Shown here: positions 9,366-20,809 of the stretch, piece after piece | Layout of the letters: each line of letters starts with the position of its first letter | How positions within the stretch are numbered: the stretch's first letter is position 1 | Source of the DNA: a virus | Lineage: Duplodnaviria > Caudoviricetes | Strand: one strand, 5' to 3' | DNA: 31,538 nucleotides | Virus record (IMG/VR): IMGVR_UViG_3300021354_000022 | Location: 1 to 31,538 of that record | Position numbers and translations under genes: made by a program | The notes under the pieces: model-generated | The model's database searches: none | Told to the model about the DNA's origin: nothing | What the model saw: only the letters and a program-made list of their open reading frames with translations

Positions 9366-9416
9366 ACTTTTAACGCTTTATCACTATAAACTGCATACAT
9401 CAACAAGGGGAAACAA

Positions 9417-9578
9417 ATGAACTACAAAAACTTTCAAATTGCATACAAGCCAGAGTTAAACACTTATGTAATTATTGACAGTAAGTTTAATCAAGAAATT
9501 AAATGTAAATCTGTTCAAGCTTGTAAAGTGCGTATTTCTAAACTTATTGCTTCTCGCCAGCGTTTTGCAGCGCTTTAA
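9417..9578 (+). CDS. Small hypothetical protein (53 aa)
   Basis: Not in track: MNYKNFQIAYKPELNTYVIIDSKFNQEIKCKSVQACKVRISKLIASRQRFAAL; RBS AAGGGG, upstream TAAACT -10-like hexamer. Confidence 0.65.
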   Translation: MNYKNFQIAYKPELNTYVIIDSKFNQEIKCKSVQACKVRISKLIASRQRFAAL

Positions 9579-10392
9579 TTTGGCTTTCAATTAATTCTCT
9601 GCGGTCTAGTTTGTTTTCAAACTTATCAAGCATCTTTACTTGGGCTGGGTCAAACATAACATAATTGTTAGTGTCCCTGCCTTGACCTTTTACCATTTGC
9701 ATATTTTCATATTTAATTCCAGGTATACCTTGTTCTAAAAGCCATTTAGAGGCATCTGCTTCAGGTGTTTTTGACCCTGCTTGTTTTAAACTAAATGCTA
9801 TTTCTTTATATAATTTTTCGCCTGTAGTTGGCGATATACCGCTACCAAATTGTTCCATTGCTTTAGCAGAAATGCGTTTTCTAGCATCTTCAGGCACTTC
9901 TTCATACCAATTAAGCATTTTTGGTATTAAAGCATCAGGAATATCTACTTTGTAAAGATTGCCTTCTTTTGGCCCAGAAATCGTATTTCTAGAAGCCATA
10001 TACATTCCAGCAACATCAGGGCTTTCAGCAAAATAAATACCATGACCAAAATTGTTTGCTTTTGCACTTGTACCAGCTTTTGTTATGTCAAAACCTTCTT
10101 TTATTACATTTGGAGTGCCATGCCATGCTGTTAAAGCAGCCACATTTGGTACTTCACCCATAAATCTATTAAAAGCGCCTTGGTCAGTTATTTGCATACC
10201 TTGGGGTGTCATTTGCAATGCAGCATCTATGTCTTGGCGTTGTTTTGCAAGGTTTTGCATTGTTTTCTGCGGCAAACTTGCTATATGTTCTGACAATACT
10301 TTAGTCATTGGTGAGTTTACAGGCGTAGGTATGGCTAGTGTCCCATCCTGAGCGTAACCTGTTTGACGCAGTATTTCAGCCAATGTAGGCAT
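9544..10392 (-). CDS. ADP-ribosyltransferase-fold protein (polyvalent-protein ART-like)
   Basis: AWHGT...FGHGIYFAESPDVAGMY...GIPGIKY...NYVMFDP motif series. Confidence 0.75.
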   Translation of the reverse strand: MPTLAEILRQTGYAQDGTLAIPTPVNSPMTKVLSEHIASLPQKTMQNLAKQRQDIDAALQMTPQGMQITDQGAFNRFMGEVPNVAALTAWHGTPNVIKEGFDITKAGTSAKANNFGHGIYFAESPDVAGMYMASRNTISGPKEGNLYKVDIPDALIPKMLNWYEEVPEDARKRISAKAMEQFGSGISPTTGEKLYKEIAFSLKQAGSKTPEADASKWLLEQGIPGIKYENMQMVKGQGRDTNNYVMFDPAQVKMLDKFENKLDRRELIESQIKALQNAGEKQ

Positions 10393-11464: not shown

Positions 11465-11509
11465 AATAATATGTTAGTGTTTAGCAACTTATAGTATAAG
11501 GGGTATTCA

Positions 11510-12469
11510 ATGACGCAGTATTACTTGCCAGATGAAGAATGGATTGCCCTTTGGAAAGAGTGCGGTTCTGCCAAAATAATGTCCCAAAAGACAGGGATTA
11601 CAGAAAGGTCTGTATATAACCGCAGACGCTCAATAGAATCTAGGTACAAAATTGAATTACCTTCAGTTGATGACCAGCGCTTTGACCAGTTAAAGAAAAT
11701 AGCCCAGACCACAGGACATACACGCAGGGGCATGGAAATAGAAAAAGGTAAAGTCATTGTCTTTAGTGATGCTCACTTTTGGCCTGACGATACCACCACA
11801 GCATTCAAAGCCCTGTTAGAAATGATTAAAGAGCATAAGCCTACTGCCATAGTCTGTAATGGGGATGCGCTTGATGGGGCTAATCTTAGTCGTTTTCCAC
11901 GCCAGGATTGGAATAAAGTCCCAACAGTCAAAGAAGAGTTAGACGCTTGTCAGTATTACTTGGGCGAAATTGAAGCGGTAGCCAAAGGAGCTAAGTTATT
12001 TTGGCCCATTGGCAACCATGACCAAAGACTTGAAATGAGTATTATTGCCAACCTTCCATCATTTGAAGGTGTCAAAGGCACAAGTCTTAAAGACTATTTT
12101 CCTATGTGGCAGCCTTGTTGGAGCTTTTGGCTCAATGAAGATGTTTGCATAAAGCATCGTTGGAAAGGTGGTTGGACAGGTGGTCGTAACAACGCTGTCA
12201 ATAGCGGTTGCTCTATGCTTACAGGTCATACCCATGTACTGAGTGCTATACCTTTTAATGACTATAACGGCACACGCTGGGGTGTTCAGACAGGCACTTT
12301 AGCTGACCCAATGGGGCAACAGTTCAGTTATACCGAGGACACGCCTAAAGATTGGAATAGTGGCTTTGTAATGCTTTCATTTGAGCGCAGCAAAATGCTT
12401 CAACCTGAACTCATTAGAGTATGCGGTGAAGATGAGGTAGATTTTAGAGGAAAGATTCATAGAGTATGA
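11510..12469 (+). CDS. Calcineurin-like metallophosphoesterase with N-terminal HTH-like segment
   Basis: Motifs SDAH, GDALD, GNHD, KH and GHTH. Confidence 0.88.
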   Translation: MTQYYLPDEEWIALWKECGSAKIMSQKTGITERSVYNRRRSIESRYKIELPSVDDQRFDQLKKIAQTTGHTRRGMEIEKGKVIVFSDAHFWPDDTTTAFKALLEMIKEHKPTAIVCNGDALDGANLSRFPRQDWNKVPTVKEELDACQYYLGEIEAVAKGAKLFWPIGNHDQRLEMSIIANLPSFEGVKGTSLKDYFPMWQPCWSFWLNEDVCIKHRWKGGWTGGRNNAVNSGCSMLTGHTHVLSAIPFNDYNGTRWGVQTGTLADPMGQQFSYTEDTPKDWNSGFVMLSFERSKMLQPELIRVCGEDEVDFRGKIHRV

Positions 12470-13512: not shown

Positions 13513-13676
13513 TGTTTCCTTACCTGGTCATAAGTAGAAAACTCTAACTTTATGGTTTCTTCAGCTAAATCATGGGCTATGAGTGTAGCCTTTTCATACT
13601 GTTTTTTAAGAGTAGCGTTGTGATAACACCGTAATAACTTTTGAATACGCAGGTAGTTTTCAGAATAATCAGTCAT
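13500..13676 (-). CDS. Hypothetical protein (58 aa)
   Basis: Not in track: MTDYSENYLRIQKLLRCYHNATLKKQYEKATLIAHDLAEETIKLEFSTYDQVRKQWLT; ATGA overlap with the queD stop. Confidence 0.65.
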   Translation of the reverse strand: MTDYSENYLRIQKLLRCYHNATLKKQYEKATLIAHDLAEETIKLEFSTYDQVRKQWLT

Positions 13677-14038
13677 TCAATCTCCAAAGTGCATTTGTCG
13701 CCAGAGGCTTTTCTTTCTACAGTTACTTCACATAATCCTTTTACATCTTTGCAAAAATCAGTTATGTAAAGACATAAATTTTCTAATGTTGGTCTGCCTA
13801 AACCTTCAACATTATCTAAAAATTTGTGGTCAAGTCTAATTTTTAATGGGTCAATCACCCAAGCAAAATGCCCAAAATCTTTAACCATTCCATCTTCATT
13901 TGGTTCGCCTCTAACTGAAATGCTTGCATGGTAAGTATGCCCATGTATATTTTCTGATTGCATTTTGGTGTGTACATCCACATACCTACCTTTTAATGTA
14001 TGTGCAGCGTCAAAATAAAATGTTTGTGTAAGTTTCAA
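13673..14038 (-). CDS. queD: 6-carboxy-5,6,7,8-tetrahydropterin synthase (QueD/PTPS family)
   Basis: FDAAH...HGHTY...GMVKDF...LDHKFL...PTLENL; TTG start with GAGGGG RBS. Confidence 0.9.
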   Translation of the reverse strand: MKLTQTFYFDAAHTLKGRYVDVHTKMQSENIHGHTYHASISVRGEPNEDGMVKDFGHFAWVIDPLKIRLDHKFLDNVEGLGRPTLENLCLYITDFCKDVKGLCEVTVERKASGDKCTLEIE

Positions 14039-14772
14039 AATAACCCCTCTTGTTCAACTTGCATAAAATTCCAAGTAGATGGTGCATTATGAGCTTCAAT
14101 TCTTGACCTCATTACTTGCGCTCTAGCTTCTTTTGTTGGGGGTGGGTAATTGCCGTTTTTCCAATTTTTGTCAATTCCTACATTTCTAGCAATGTTTGTG
14201 CTGTCCGTAGAAGCAAAAGGCAATTTAGTAAATATTGCTGGGTCTAACATACGCAGACCATGAAGTTTGCATATTGGCCTACCCATATCATCGCAAATAA
14301 CACGCATTGCTTGACCCATTTTTGACCACCAGGCAGATGTTCCAACTGTAGCGTATTCACCAGAACTACCAATACATACACGCACATAATAATTGGCTAA
14401 TTGTTCCAACCTTTCTAATGATTCATGCATATGCCATACAGGAGCTCCAAACCATTTAGGTAATGGGCAATCTTCAAGCAACGCATCATTGTCAGCCTCT
14501 GTTCCATCAATGACATCAGGAATACAAGCAAAATCACAAGATGGTACTTTTTTAAGGTTTAATGCCCAATCATAATAAGCATCCCAATTAGTAACTGGTT
14601 TACCGCTTTTCCAAGCACTAAAAGCGCCATTGTCTATAGCAAAAGATTGACATACTTCAATTGCTGTGCCAATTTGGTCTGCATGAGCATAAGACACAAA
14701 GGCATGACCAGCTTGTACAGCGTAATTAGCAACTGTGGCTGGGGTTATAGGAAGCCCATGATAATGAATCAT
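14035..14772 (-). CDS. TGT-fold transglycosylase-like protein (DpdA-like)
   Basis: DNGAFS, PDVIDG, PVWH, CIGSSG, LHGL and STDST motifs of the TGT/DpdA barrel; overlaps queD. Confidence 0.7.
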   Translation of the reverse strand: MIHYHGLPITPATVANYAVQAGHAFVSYAHADQIGTAIEVCQSFAIDNGAFSAWKSGKPVTNWDAYYDWALNLKKVPSCDFACIPDVIDGTEADNDALLEDCPLPKWFGAPVWHMHESLERLEQLANYYVRVCIGSSGEYATVGTSAWWSKMGQAMRVICDDMGRPICKLHGLRMLDPAIFTKLPFASTDSTNIARNVGIDKNWKNGNYPPPTKEARAQVMRSRIEAHNAPSTWNFMQVEQEGLF

Positions 14773-15423: not shown

Positions 15424-15590
15424 CCCCATTCTCCCCTGTTACCAGCTTCATAAGCTGTATAAAAATCACGCAAAAGTTGTTCATCAAACTTGTGTTCGCT
15501 TATGTATTTACGAAACCAAATCAAACCTTTTTTGTGTCTTAAAGCACATAAATACCTTATGCCGCACTCATGCCTAAAGCCTTCATGCAT
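15378..15590 (-). CDS. Hypothetical protein
   Basis: 70 aa, RHECGIRY...GNRGEWG, in operon. Confidence 0.55.
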   Translation of the reverse strand: MHEGFRHECGIRYLCALRHKKGLIWFRKYISEHKFDEQLLRDFYTAYEAGNRGEWGCLKGILLQQQGLGI

Positions 15591-16040: not shown

Positions 16041-16348
16041 TGCAACACACGAGGACTTGGCGGTGTTGATGGGCTAGGCGGTACTGTATAGCCTGTGTTA
16101 CCAACAACGCTTTGTGTATAACCACTTGGTGTCGTGATTACGACTTGGTTAGGATATATTGTAGCAGTCTGAGTAGTAATACCCATTGGGTTTACGAACT
16201 GTGCGGTGTTGCCATTAATTTGTACAGTTCCTAAGTTATAACCACGACTGTCAGTCATTTGAACCTGTTGTGCATTAGCAGGTATGCCATAACAAAACAT
16301 AGCTGCAAATAAAACGCCTAATAAACAACTACCTATAAAATCTTTCAT
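16037..16348 (-). CDS. Exported/periplasmic protein
   Basis: Start at 16348 (RBS AAAGGGG) gives the signal peptide MKDFIGSCLLGVLFAAMFCYGIPANA, then beta-hairpin-like repeats and a Pro-rich tail. Confidence 0.7.
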   Translation of the reverse strand: MKDFIGSCLLGVLFAAMFCYGIPANAQQVQMTDSRGYNLGTVQINGNTAQFVNPMGITTQTATIYPNQVVITTPSGYTQSVVGNTGYTVPPSPSTPPSPRVLQ

Positions 16349-16392
16349 TTGAATCCCCTTTGTTAAAAACCTAGTTTCTGACTTTCTACAAG

Positions 16393-16434
16393 CTAAGTAA
16401 ATACTCCAAAACCCTAAGTTGCAAATACGCAACA
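16393..16434 (-). promoter_or_regulatory. Palindromic operator plus AGGGT-box variant
   Basis: GTTGC-AAATAC-GCAACA (16418-16434), followed on the minus strand by TTAGGGTTTTGGAGTATTTACTTAG. Confidence 0.55.
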
Positions 16435-16450
16435 TGTACACTTTTTGGCG

Positions 16451-16482
16451 TTTTTTATACATATAGGTATCAATATGTATAC
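16451..16482 (-). repeat. 32-bp inverted repeat, left copy
   Basis: Minus strand GTATACATATTGATACCTATATGTATAAAAAA, 29/32 identical to 19876-19907. Confidence 0.85.
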
Positions 16483-16514
16483 GCAATCAATACTTATAGG
16501 TACTAAAAGACATA

Positions 16515-16740
16515 GTTTGACCAAGGGTGATAGGGAACTATCAACCGACCCAATGTCTATGACATCTAGTCCTTCACTAAGATAATGGTCATTCGATGGA
16601 GAAGTTGTATCACCCAAGTCCTCTCCGTCTTGTGTAGTCGCCATTTAACGCTACGAGGCTTGCAATGGGGTTATCACCAGCCTATCTTTTCTTCCACGCC
16701 ACCGATTTAGGTGCTTAGTACGCCTGGAGTGCGGACTGCA
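16515..16740 (-). ncRNA. Candidate ~225-nt structured RNA
   Basis: GC-richer intergenic tract with at least 6 stems; G-U pairs favour the minus strand. Confidence 0.55.
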
Positions 16741-16743
16741 ATA

Positions 16744-17469
16744 TTACTCTTTTATATCTTCCTCTGCCATGTGGCAAAAAATACCGCATTGTATGTCTTG
16801 TTCTTGGGGATAATTACCAGCTTCAGGTGGCAATTCATCCAAATATACATCTTTTAAAACTGTTTGTTTCTTTTTGCGCTCAAGTTGAGCCATACGGTCA
16901 AATTGCACAGGAAAGTCTACTTTAATCTTATTCCAATAGCCTTTACCGCCTTTAACGCAACCAATACAGTTGTTGTTATGGTAGCCTAGCTTATACATAA
17001 CTGGAAGCTCTATACCAGCGTTTTGAAGCATTGCAAGGCAATCTACTTTACCAAGTCCTTTATCAATTAAAGGCGCTTTAGCATCAATATTATTGGCATC
17101 AAGAAAACGGTCATAGCGGTCTTGTTCTTCCATCGTATAGCCAAATACTTGAATATCTGTAGGTTGCTCAAATTTAAGCCTAACATCCTTTTTTAGTTTT
17201 CTAGTGCATGGGCTTGCACCTTTAATATTCATGGCTGAAGTTTCAAAACACTTATAAATTGACCTTTCATAACGGTCATTGCCCAAAATAAGTATTTTTT
17301 GACCAAACCATTTTTCGCAATCAGCAAGAAAACGCTTGTTATCAAAGTGTTCTTCAATTACTTCTGTGTACACAACAATAACTTCTTTGTCTTTAAATTG
17401 TGCTAAAGCCAACTTTGTAGCTACAGCACTAGCAGCGCCACAAGAAAACCAACAAACAACTCTAGGCAT
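16744..17469 (-). CDS. PAPS-reductase-like PP-loop (adenine nucleotide alpha-hydrolase) enzyme
   Basis: WFSCGAAS loop, PCTRKLK, GYHNNNCIGCVKGG, C-terminal CGIFC. Confidence 0.8.
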   Translation of the reverse strand: MPRVVCWFSCGAASAVATKLALAQFKDKEVIVVYTEVIEEHFDNKRFLADCEKWFGQKILILGNDRYERSIYKCFETSAMNIKGASPCTRKLKKDVRLKFEQPTDIQVFGYTMEEQDRYDRFLDANNIDAKAPLIDKGLGKVDCLAMLQNAGIELPVMYKLGYHNNNCIGCVKGGKGYWNKIKVDFPVQFDRMAQLERKKKQTVLKDVYLDELPPEAGNYPQEQDIQCGIFCHMAEEDIKE

Positions 17470-17471
17470 AA

Positions 17472-17744
17472 TTAATCTTCAATTTGTATAAAAGCGTTGC
17501 TTTTAGGCAACAATTCAGGCCATATTAAAAAGTAGTTATTTGGAAACATATCTTGGCGAGTTACCAAACCATTGCTTTCTTTTTCAATTCTTGCGCCCAA
17601 AAACATAAACCTGTCGGCTGGGATGCCACGCACACGCCAGTTGGATACGGCTGCATTGTCTACTTTGCACATTTTTGCCACTTTTGCCGTACCACCTAAC
17701 AAATCAATAATGGCGTTATCGGTAAGTTTTAATTTTGTGTCCAT
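17472..17744 (-). CDS. Cro/YdaS-like HTH regulator
   Basis: IIDLLGGTAKVAKMCKVDNAAVSNWRVRGIP...IWPEL; first gene of the leftward operon. Confidence 0.85.
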   Translation of the reverse strand: MDTKLKLTDNAIIDLLGGTAKVAKMCKVDNAAVSNWRVRGIPADRFMFLGARIEKESNGLVTRQDMFPNNYFLIWPELLPKSNAFIQIED

Positions 17745-17812: not shown

Positions 17813-17854
17813 TGCCTATATAGCAATTTCGCTATGTATTTAAGGGGAACTTAA

Positions 17855-18058
17855 ATGGGTGAACTAAACCAACTAATGTTGGAAATGGAAGAGCGTTTAG
17901 AAATAGCGCTTAACAATATGGAATTTGGCACAGAGCTTGCACAAGACGATATTGATGTTATTCGTGCAGCTTGTGGCAAACCACGAAACAGTCGTGTCAA
18001 TCCTTTACTGCGTGATGTTATTAATGACTTTGGCGCAATTTTTGGAGGCTCGAAATGA
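17855..18058 (+). CDS. Hypothetical early protein
   Basis: 67 aa, RBS AAGGGG. Confidence 0.7.
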   Translation: MGELNQLMLEMEERLEIALNNMEFGTELAQDDIDVIRAACGKPRNSRVNPLLRDVINDFGAIFGGSK

Positions 18059-18936: not shown

Positions 18937-18955
18937 GCAGTTTAAAGGGGAAAAT

Positions 18956-19702
18956 ATGAGTCAGCATTGGTACTGTGCCATTACAGGCGCACCACGATAT
19001 ACGATGGTCGGCAAAAATGGCAAAGAAAGAAGCGTAACTTTGCGTGATGCCAAAGCAGCGCCAGGTACTTTAGTTCCATCTGTGTCCACCATAAATGGAC
19101 AGCTTTCTAAAGATGGATTAAATACATGGCTTCAAACAGAGGCTATTAAAGCTGCTGCGGAAAATCCTAGGGGTCTACAAGAAGAAGAAAAAGACTACAT
19201 TAGCCGTATTCTTGACTTGTCTAAGAAAAAGTCCCAAGAAGCCATGACTAGGGGAACTCTTATACATGACTTCATAGAGAGCTTTTACAACCAAGAATAC
19301 CTACCAGAGATGCCTACCTATGTCCGCAAGGTAGATGACGCTATAACGGCTCATTTTGGGGCGCAGCTATGGATTGCCGAACAGTCTTTAGTCAATCAAG
19401 AAGGCTATGGTGGTAAGTGCGATTTATATTGCAAAGCAAAGCATGACTTCCCTGGGGTAGTAATTGACTTTAAAACGACAGAAAAATCCCCTGGTGAACT
19501 AACACCCTATCTAGAGCATACACTACAGCTTGCAGCCTATAGAGAAGTTCTAGCACCCCAAGCTAGATGTGCCAATGTCTACATTAATGGCGAAACTGGT
19601 GAGGTTGCAATATACGAACATACAGAGCAAGCCATTAGGGATGGCTATGAAATGTTCCTAAGTCTTTTAAAAATATACAAGCTCAAAACTGGGTTAAACT
19701 AA
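18956..19702 (+). CDS. PD-(D/E)xK exonuclease
   Basis: PSVST, RGTLIH, YGGKCD, IDFKT, QLAAY. Confidence 0.85.
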   Translation: MSQHWYCAITGAPRYTMVGKNGKERSVTLRDAKAAPGTLVPSVSTINGQLSKDGLNTWLQTEAIKAAAENPRGLQEEEKDYISRILDLSKKKSQEAMTRGTLIHDFIESFYNQEYLPEMPTYVRKVDDAITAHFGAQLWIAEQSLVNQEGYGGKCDLYCKAKHDFPGVVIDFKTTEKSPGELTPYLEHTLQLAAYREVLAPQARCANVYINGETGEVAIYEHTEQAIRDGYEMFLSLLKIYKLKTGLN

Positions 19703-19707
19703 ACAAT

Positions 19708-19767
19708 GAGGTGGTAGGTGTGCTTTCCCCTTTGCACAACCATACATTCACGGAGTCCTGCCACCTC
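19708..19767 (+). ncRNA. Candidate anti-Shine-Dalgarno sRNA hairpin
   Basis: 11-bp stem (19708-19718/19757-19767) enclosing UGUGC-UUUCCCCUUU-GCACA. Confidence 0.6.
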
Positions 19768-19778
19768 GCCTCTTTTCA

Positions 19779-19866
19779 AGGGCGTTAAGCCGCCATAACA
19801 GGATGCAGTAAGTTAGGGTTTTTGCGGCTTTCCACCTAATAGCTAGTAACTGCCAAATGTTGCCCT
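19779..19866 (+). ncRNA. Candidate pseudoknotted RNA
   Basis: Nested stems AGGGC/GCCCU, AACA/UGUU, GCAGU/ACUGC, UUAGG/CCUAA; loop GCGGCUU pairs with upstream AAGCCGC. Confidence 0.55.
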
Positions 19867-20092: not shown

Positions 20093-20166
20093 AGCAGGTC
20101 TTGACACTATTCAGCTCTATGGCTCTTTGAGATTTCAGACTAAAAAGACCTGACCTGCTTTTTTTT
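20093..20166 (+). terminator. Structured leader/sRNA ending in a terminator-like U-tract
   Basis: AGCAGGTC...GACCTGCT followed by a T-run; alternative pairing CAGGTCTT/AAGACCTG. Confidence 0.5.
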
Positions 20167-20412: not shown

Positions 20413-20573
20413 ATATTCAAATTGAAATAGTCAAAGAACATGAAGATGGGTCAGCAGACGCTTTAGTTCATTTTGACGCTGAAGGACTAGGAATATTGGT
20501 AGAAGCTGGTATTTTAAGCATATTGCGCCAATACATAGAACAGGAAAAGAAAAAGGCAAAGAAAAAGAAATGA
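20409..20573 (+). CDS. Hypothetical protein (54 aa)
   Basis: Not in track: MNIQIEIVKEHEDGSADALVHFDAEGLGILVEAGILSILRQYIEQEKKKAKKKK; ATGA overlaps. Confidence 0.65.
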   Translation: MNIQIEIVKEHEDGSADALVHFDAEGLGILVEAGILSILRQYIEQEKKKAKKKK

Positions 20574-20809
20574 TTACCGAAAAAGATGGTAGTTTTACTA
20601 TTAACTGTAAACAAGGGGAAGCAACTATGAGTACACGCAGTTTTGGAATGGTAGGAAAAACCTATAAAACGGCTTCAGAGGCGTTTAAAGAGCCTGACTA
20701 CTACACAGCTATACAAAGACCCCAACAAAGCGAATACAGCCACTTGTGGTGCGTTTTAGGGGTAATTTCTGTATTAACCTTAATTGTGTTTGTATTTAAC
20801 CGTTCTTAG
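20570..20809 (+). CDS. Small C-terminally anchored membrane protein
   Basis: C-terminal TM helix; internal ATG 20627 with RBS AAGGGG is an alternative start. Confidence 0.6.
   Translation: MITEKDGSFTINCKQGEATMSTRSFGMVGKTYKTASEAFKEPDYYTAIQRPQQSEYSHLWCVLGVISVLTLIVFVFNRS

Follow-up and report, generated by a model that had tools for sequence, protein, structure and literature searches.

A candidate phage small RNA whose C-rich loop is complementary to a GGGG class of ribosome-binding sites

The window, by which we mean the whole stretch of DNA analysed here, is a linear virus record from IMG/VR, 31.5 kb long (IMGVR_UViG_3300021354_000022; 31,538 nucleotides), with a CheckV completeness of 92%. 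Its layout is podovirus-like: portal, terminase and virion genes lie on the minus strand, and the early region is divergent. The early region holds ERF and SSB genes, a Cro/YdaS-like HTH gene (17472–17744, minus strand) and a PD-(D/E)XK exonuclease gene (18956–19702, plus strand; PHROG 298, PF12705). No close isolate phage was found, the portal and lysin matches being distant, and a blastn comparison of the intergenic region with named phages gave no match. The exonuclease outgroups are located in betaproteobacterial genomes, and the Rfam Betaproteobacteria-1 RNA is present in 3 of 10 related loci, upstream of the exonuclease and on the opposite strand (L022 8208–8334; L038 1497–1623; L286 13–134, minus strand); it was not found in window positions 16300–16800. 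Together, the outgroups and this RNA hint at a betaproteobacterial host.

Two further groups of genes deserve mention. At 13673–14772 and 16744–17469 (minus strand) lie QueD-like, queuine tRNA-ribosyltransferase-like and PAPS-reductase-like genes, which may point to DNA base modification. The product of 9544–10392 (minus strand) has weak ADP-ribosyltransferase matches (PARP, ART-PolyVal) and its gene sits among late genes. Integrase, S24 peptidase, ParA and resolvase domains are absent from all five complete relatives, two of which carry a short HTH_3.

Five nucleotides past the exonuclease stop begins an element of the plus strand that we call RNA A (19708–19770); this spacing makes its co-transcription with the exonuclease likely. 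The sequence-only reading had described a hairpin at 19708–19767, in which an 11-bp stem with one G-U pair presents a sub-hairpin. The minimum free energy (MFE) fold of this segment (−23.7 kcal/mol, z −3.5; 2 of 200 shuffles equally good) bears out the stem and the sub-hairpin, but the element is really a three-way junction that extends to 19770. The closing stem P1 pairs 19708–19718 with 19757–19767 (11 bp, one U-G pair), and P2 pairs 19719–19723 with 19734–19738 (5 bp). A linker (19739–19743) leads to a weak P3 (19744–19756), which has just 2 bp in the window and 3–6 bp in many relatives, and a tRNA-like R-CC 3′ end closes the element at 19768–19770. The C-rich seed loop UUUCCCCUUU (19724–19733) has an unpaired probability of 1.0 and is predicted to be fully open, flanks included. 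The P3 loop (19746–19754) bears a UCACG(G) motif that is more widely conserved than the C loop. The minus strand of 19708–19767 folds as well, at −21.6 kcal/mol (z −2.4).

A covariance model finds a single copy of RNA A in the window, and Rfam returns no match for it, either at the gathering threshold or at E up to 10. Two other identities were considered and rejected: ARAGORN finds no tRNA or tmRNA in the window (a cloverleaf with D and T arms), and no intrinsic terminator is called at RNA A, behind which another cassette continues on the same strand.

Eighty loci were fetched through similarity to the exonuclease (79–98% identity). RNA A follows the exonuclease in 78 of them, and the remaining two contigs break off at this point. 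An extra ORF intervenes in two of the 78, with RNA A directly after the stop of that ORF. An inserted ORF of about 470–490 nt separates exonuclease and RNA in L057, L066, L332 and L334, where the RNA still lies right behind a stop codon. In the clade B loci L210, L222, L227 and L300, the closing stem of the RNA overlaps the exonuclease stop codon.

Loci selected by exonuclease and loci selected by pattern together yield 49 distinct versions of RNA A. All 49 have G at +1, and 48 end in ACC; the window ends in GCC. UCCCCUU falls within the hairpin loop in 48 of the 49 distinct MFE folds, and this one constant loop is closed by 20 different P2 helices. The plus strand is the more stable one in 48 of the 49 versions, with 53 G-U pairs and a single C-A mismatch. 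On a plain alignment, 64 cells show two-sided changes, compared with 27.6 in shuffles; seven pairs change on both sides, which is no excess over shuffles because subfamilies are misaligned. A model-fitted alignment gives two-sided changes at 17 of 18 pairs, and none of 500 shuffles reaches as high, although the fitting itself favours structure. The loop is invariant and the stems covary; an unconserved loop, which the sequence-only reading had named as refuting it, is not seen. We regard it as close to certain that RNA A is a real structured RNA.

The covariance model picks up six of the 11 clade E loci, every one of them type E1 (E 0.003–0.04), and 6 of 9 clade B loci (E 0.01–0.6). It matches no clade C, D, F or E2 locus, so that the homology of their RNAs rests on position and shared motifs. 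A P3-type pattern occurs in 72 of the 73 loci of clade A and in 55 of the 58 of clade C. The pattern scan gives many chance matches; among the matches listed, the well-folded ones adjoin an exonuclease. In one subfamily the P3 loop is reverse-complemented in an inversion-like manner (L013 5119–5182, TCCGTG; L004 2452–2518, CACGGA).

RNA A heads a cassette array with AU-rich linkers, which includes a pseudoknotted module and a variable stem module. The former, module B (19780–19865, plus strand), is a likely pseudoknot present in 66 of the 73 clade A loci and in 41 of the 58 from clade C; its two pairing halves have changed in concert in 11 of 111, and it has no Rfam match. A third hairpin cassette (20093–20159, plus strand) precedes a T run and ORF 20176, and its pattern recurs in 25 of 73 clade A loci. 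Conserved as a hairpin and variable in its interior, it may represent an attenuator or an additional small RNA. The array also contains tRNA-Asn(GTT) in three loci (L079 10243–10318; L080 10817–10892; L286 2625–2700), in the first two of which it begins 4 nt past the end of RNA A. The variable cassette has a stem between GAAA and AGTA, inserts of widely differing length and an end that is ACC-like too. It is seen in L034 after 6114, in L038 after 4162, and after the exonuclease in L240 and L263; we take its flanked stem in these four loci to be loop-E-like.

The sequence-only reading placed complements of the seed loop at the ribosome-binding sites (RBSs) of six dispersed non-structural genes, and all six were recovered; they are the predicted targets of the loop. 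The exonuclease RBS (18944–18953, plus strand) is complementary at 10 of 10 positions and, adjoining RNA A, forms the best loop duplex in the window; all 75 orthologs whose start could be located have AAGGGG. The site at 17842–17849 (plus strand) belongs to ORF 17855–18058, the first gene of the rightward early operon, and is kept in 65 of 69 orthologs. That of ORF 16348–16037 (16354–16362, minus strand) is kept in 40 of 46. The metallophosphoesterase gene 11510–12469 has a match of 6 nt only in the window (11498–11503, plus strand), with the site in 11 of 16 orthologs. Accessory ORF 9417–9578 is a predicted target through complementarity at 9405–9413 (plus strand) and through its counterpart in L047, described below. 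The last of the six, at 20613–20620 (plus strand; 11 of 29 orthologs), serves ORF 20627–20809: it fits the ATG at 20627 rather than the ORF start at 20570, and relatives start at 20627 too.

When 49 window starts were scored, the six sites fell within the eight best loop duplexes, the other two being at 15429 and 14038 (both minus strand). The former is a possible further target: AGGGG at 15433–15437 (minus strand) precedes ORF 15429–15277, with a duplex of −12.6 kcal/mol, and orthologs show AGGGG in 30 of 42 and AAGGGG in 4 of 42. All loop–RBS duplexes span 6–10 bp only, inside a loop of 9–11 nt. Structural genes do use AGGA or GGAG, as had been observed: the coat gene has AAGGAT, and 1774, 24066, 26321 and 30593 behave likewise. 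In the window, AAGGGG stands ahead of an ATG in 6 of 9 non-self copies, and AAGGAA in 11 of 22. Taken alone, therefore, the window establishes AAGGGG as an RBS and no more, and the case for a regulated class rests on the relatives.

Among 77 dereplicated clade A loci, 326 of 517 AAGGGG copies precede a start. Such start sites occur in 77 of 77 clade A loci and 13 of 61 loci of sister clade C, at rates of 3.94 and 0.29 per 10 kb, respectively. Equal frequency of such sites in relatives without the C loop would have spoken against the idea; they are about 13-fold rarer there. At the position of RNA A, clade C has, among the loci listed, either a similar junction with an A-rich loop or the P3 hairpin alone. 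Its orthologs carry AAGGGG in 2 of 60 cases for the exonuclease, 0 of 46 for the first early gene, 0 of 19 for ORF 16348 and 0 of 6 for the phosphoesterase.

No AAGGGG is found in the structural, terminase or lysis ortholog rows. The Cro/YdaS-like gene, apparently almost leaderless, has a GGGG site in 0 of 68 orthologs. The earlier proposal that the loop addresses one RBS class withstands these tests, but the class does not cover all early genes, AAGGGG being mostly missing from the ERF (2 of 69) and SSB (8 of 73) orthologs. In L047, the position of the window's single ORF 9417 is occupied by an accessory operon of seven small genes (1078–2952), the last of them an HTH gene. All seven have GGGG sites, five of which are AAGGGG; as the seven genes are consecutive, the site marks genes and not only promoter leaders. 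A strict promoter motif lies upstream of 0 of 75 exonuclease sites, in a strict scan that is mostly blank overall.

Loop and site change together between clades, in line with the co-conservation test that the sequence-only reading had suggested. Clade E1 has the loop UUUCCCCCGA, and its first-early-gene orthologs have the site TCGGGGGAAC in 6 of 6 cases. This site is absent from all 68 clade A first-gene orthologs and from every start in 810 kb of clade A. The mean duplex of the E1 loop is −17.1 on cognate sites and −9.9 on clade A sites. Both clade E2 loci have the site GGGGGATC at one ortholog, alongside the loop UGAUCCCCCG. The counts for clade B are taken from the exonuclease RBS, which has three G in 11 of 13 loci with a three-C loop and four G in 5 of 6 loci whose loop has four or five C; L219 and L221 violate the C/G count rule. 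Exonuclease starts were recovered in only 2 of 9 E1 and 0 of 2 E2 loci. The matched changes appear to join separate molecules, and in our assessment the loop very probably pairs with the GGGG site class.

The number of independent observations behind this association is small. The exonuclease tree has the topology (D,(A,(B,C))); it includes 58 rows (15 of 77 from clade A, 18 of 61 from clade C), and clades E and F, fetched later, are unplaced. On this topology the contrast of A and B with C amounts to one loss or two gains. With only about four independent contrasts, Fisher p-values for the association of loop and site overstate it. Within clade A, the U/A that precedes UCCCC shows no significant fine covariation (p 0.17). 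Clade E1 retains five AAGGGGA sites in 3 of 9 loci, and both E2 first genes retain AAGGGGAAT. Clade F has seven AAGGGGA starts in 6 of 11 loci, where the hairpins are only terminator-like and RNA A is missing.

Other clades have leader signals of their own. In clade D, the site class is AGGTGA (28 sites, 6 of 6 loci), to which the C-rich RNA of that clade is not complementary. In L082 and L201–L206, where early genes share an AGGTGA site, GUCCCC motifs occur in the RNA behind the exonuclease. A UUGUUCCC stretch matching the exonuclease RBS GGGAACAA is found in L082, L201 and L202; L203–L206 lack both sequences. Clade C has a short hairpin followed by GTGAGATAG in leaders of early-region genes (78 copies in 41 of 57 loci, for example L268, L259 and L295). 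This leader is absent from clades A, B, D, E and F and has no clear complement, with at most a 4–5 nt match to the clade C P3 loop; it is possibly an antitermination signal or a second address signal. As for further targets of RNA A, a second single-stranded region with an 8-nt match to the cro start was discarded, as it shows no covariation across cro leaders, and no clear second motif accompanies the GGGG sites (327 sites, 341 controls).

We propose that the C-loop RNA, cut from the early transcript, would block translation of the GGGG-class early and accessory genes as it accumulates, which we consider probable. RNA A would be made at the end of the early operon by co-transcription and freed by RNase P-type processing. 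Such tRNA-like processing is suggested by the G at +1, the closing stem of 7–11 bp stacked on P3, the R-CC end and, in two relatives, the true tRNA close behind. Once freed, it would pair over 6–10 nt across the Shine-Dalgarno sequence of GGGG-class mRNAs. A canonical anti-Shine-Dalgarno motif pairs GGGG sites about as well as AGGAG, by G-U wobble. The ribosome may thereby read AAGGAG and AAGGGG alike, with CCCC pairing the GGGG form only. Because CCCC cannot pair GGAG, late genes, most host genes and the almost leaderless cro would escape. Where the blocked gene is the first of its operon, Rho polarity may come on top, as in C4 and CI. The outcome would be a delayed negative feedback that ends early expression in the lytic cycle.

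The sequence-only reading had the RNA possibly substituting for a missing CI. The lack of lysogeny domains in the five complete relatives disfavours that role and makes early-to-late lytic timing likelier, so that the purpose of RNA A is likely an early-to-late switch. Repression of the phage's own genes is probably its main role, and exclusion of related phages is compatible as a second one.

Exclusion could also be the principal function, with self-regulation secondary: pairing of the loop with the GGGG class would serve mainly to silence either related phages entering the cell or those host mRNAs in which the site also occurs. Four loop types matched with four site types resemble the heteroimmunity of P1 and P7 via C4 (PMC12197685), and clade E2 mixes allele types, as exchange between co-infecting phages would give. 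We judge this unlikely as the main role, since the matching sites sit on the phage's own genes and the lysogeny and partition domains missing from the five complete relatives indicate no stable carrier state. Doubtful, too, is that the site classes have another cause, such as a reading protein or copied leader cassettes, so that RNA A is a 3′-end stabiliser or tRNA mimic with an inherited or copied complementarity that goes unused. Clades C and D do own leader classes without a matching loop, several target genes head transcription units, and the P3 motif outlasts the C loop in conservation. Yet the complementarity is limited to the loop, next to a stem that varies freely, and the matched changes are repeated in E1, E2 and B. 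Moreover, internal genes have the site, namely the exonuclease and those of the L047 operon, and the strict promoter motif is absent upstream of the exonuclease sites.

That the best window duplex is with the adjacent exonuclease RBS, kept in every ortholog with a start found, would suit a 3′ untranslated region folding back on its own mRNA in cis, the other sites being bystanders. The clearest compensation, however, concerns the first gene and further genes, some sites belong to different transcripts and to the opposite strand, and the RNA ends look processed, which leaves a purely cis action very unlikely. The sign of the effect is not given by sequence, and pairing might activate or stabilise mRNAs, RNA A being an adaptor or protector. 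But the predicted duplex covers the Shine-Dalgarno sequence itself, and a duplex there excludes 30S binding. The RNA also lies at the end of the operon that would need activation, and we hold this role to be very improbable indeed. The reading we find hardest to credit is a minus-strand RNA showing AAAGGGGAAA in its loop as a CsrB-like sponge for a site-binding protein. The minus strand does fold as well, as noted above, but the G-U bias, the stability of nearly all versions, the R-CC end and the tRNA neighbour all favour the plus strand.

Taken as a repressor of its own phage's genes, RNA A recalls several known systems. C4 of P1 and P7 has three stems and is processed by RNase P from a larger transcript, and its loop pairing partly occludes an RBS, as described in PMC5320573 and PMC12197685; in the latter, divergence of the C4 loop gives specificity and underlies P1/P7 heteroimmunity. 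Like C4 (RF01695), RNA A has a three-stem junction, with P3 weak in the window, and a loop complementary to an RBS, whose divergence fits specificity. The likeness to C4 and CI in processing would follow from sequence hints only (the G at +1 and the ACC end). Unlike C4, RNA A gives no RF01695 model match in the window or in 10 related loci, and has one seed loop, with no second (a′/b′) target site found. Its predicted targets are many, dispersed and defined by RBS class, and lysogeny domains are lacking in the five complete relatives. For these reasons, namely no model match, no second site and no lysogeny genes, RNA A is not a member of the C4 family.

The CI of P4 is a small RNA processed from the operon under its control, and pairs with sites on that transcript (PMC4825925). 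RNA A is likewise likely to be processed from an operon that it controls. P4 CI, however, causes premature termination through seqA and seqC in lysogeny, whereas the sites of RNA A are RBSs, and the genes they serve are spread over several operons. T4 uses RegB to inactivate early mRNAs, recognised by a Shine-Dalgarno motif, in the passage from early to later stages (PMC9409239). RNA A would be its RNA counterpart, early mRNAs being again addressed by a Shine-Dalgarno motif. The difference is that RegB is a protein nuclease cutting GGAG/U, whereas RNA A is predicted to mask GGGG, with an address that differs between clades.

In C-rich-loop sRNAs (RsaE/RoxS, RNAIII, cuckoo RNAs), an unpaired C-rich loop pairs with the G-rich RBSs of several mRNAs. 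RNA A shares with them a conserved, C-rich loop of predicted accessibility and several G-rich RBS targets. They are regulators encoded by the host, each with a promoter and terminator of its own, whereas RNA A is phage-encoded, has a tRNA-like end and addresses sites that appear reshaped into a class. To our knowledge, the phage antisense RNAs described so far guard one or two sites, and where early mRNAs are known to be shut off via the Shine-Dalgarno motif, it is a protein that does so (T4 RegB). We found no description of RNA A in the literature, and nothing alike in the available portions of PMC2864571 or PMC5737381. Four supplements of PMC10690425 contain no match; RNA A may be among its candidates in other files.

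Altogether, we lean, at somewhat better than even confidence, towards the following view. In one set of genes, the Shine-Dalgarno sequence would have been recoded to a wobble-variant postcode, and one RNA with tRNA-like processing would read it and silence the set. On several occasions loop and sites would have been re-keyed jointly, with orthogonal regulons, and perhaps exclusion groups, as the result, within a swappable array of undescribed small RNAs. The cassette array contains further conserved RNAs without an Rfam match, and orthogonal translational switches could be made from the alleles of clades A and E1. The phage group concerned is abundant, uncultured and found in freshwater. If the view is true, lytic timing would here be achieved by a new route: one RNA addressing a genome-wide RBS class, for which compensatory alleles exist in nature.
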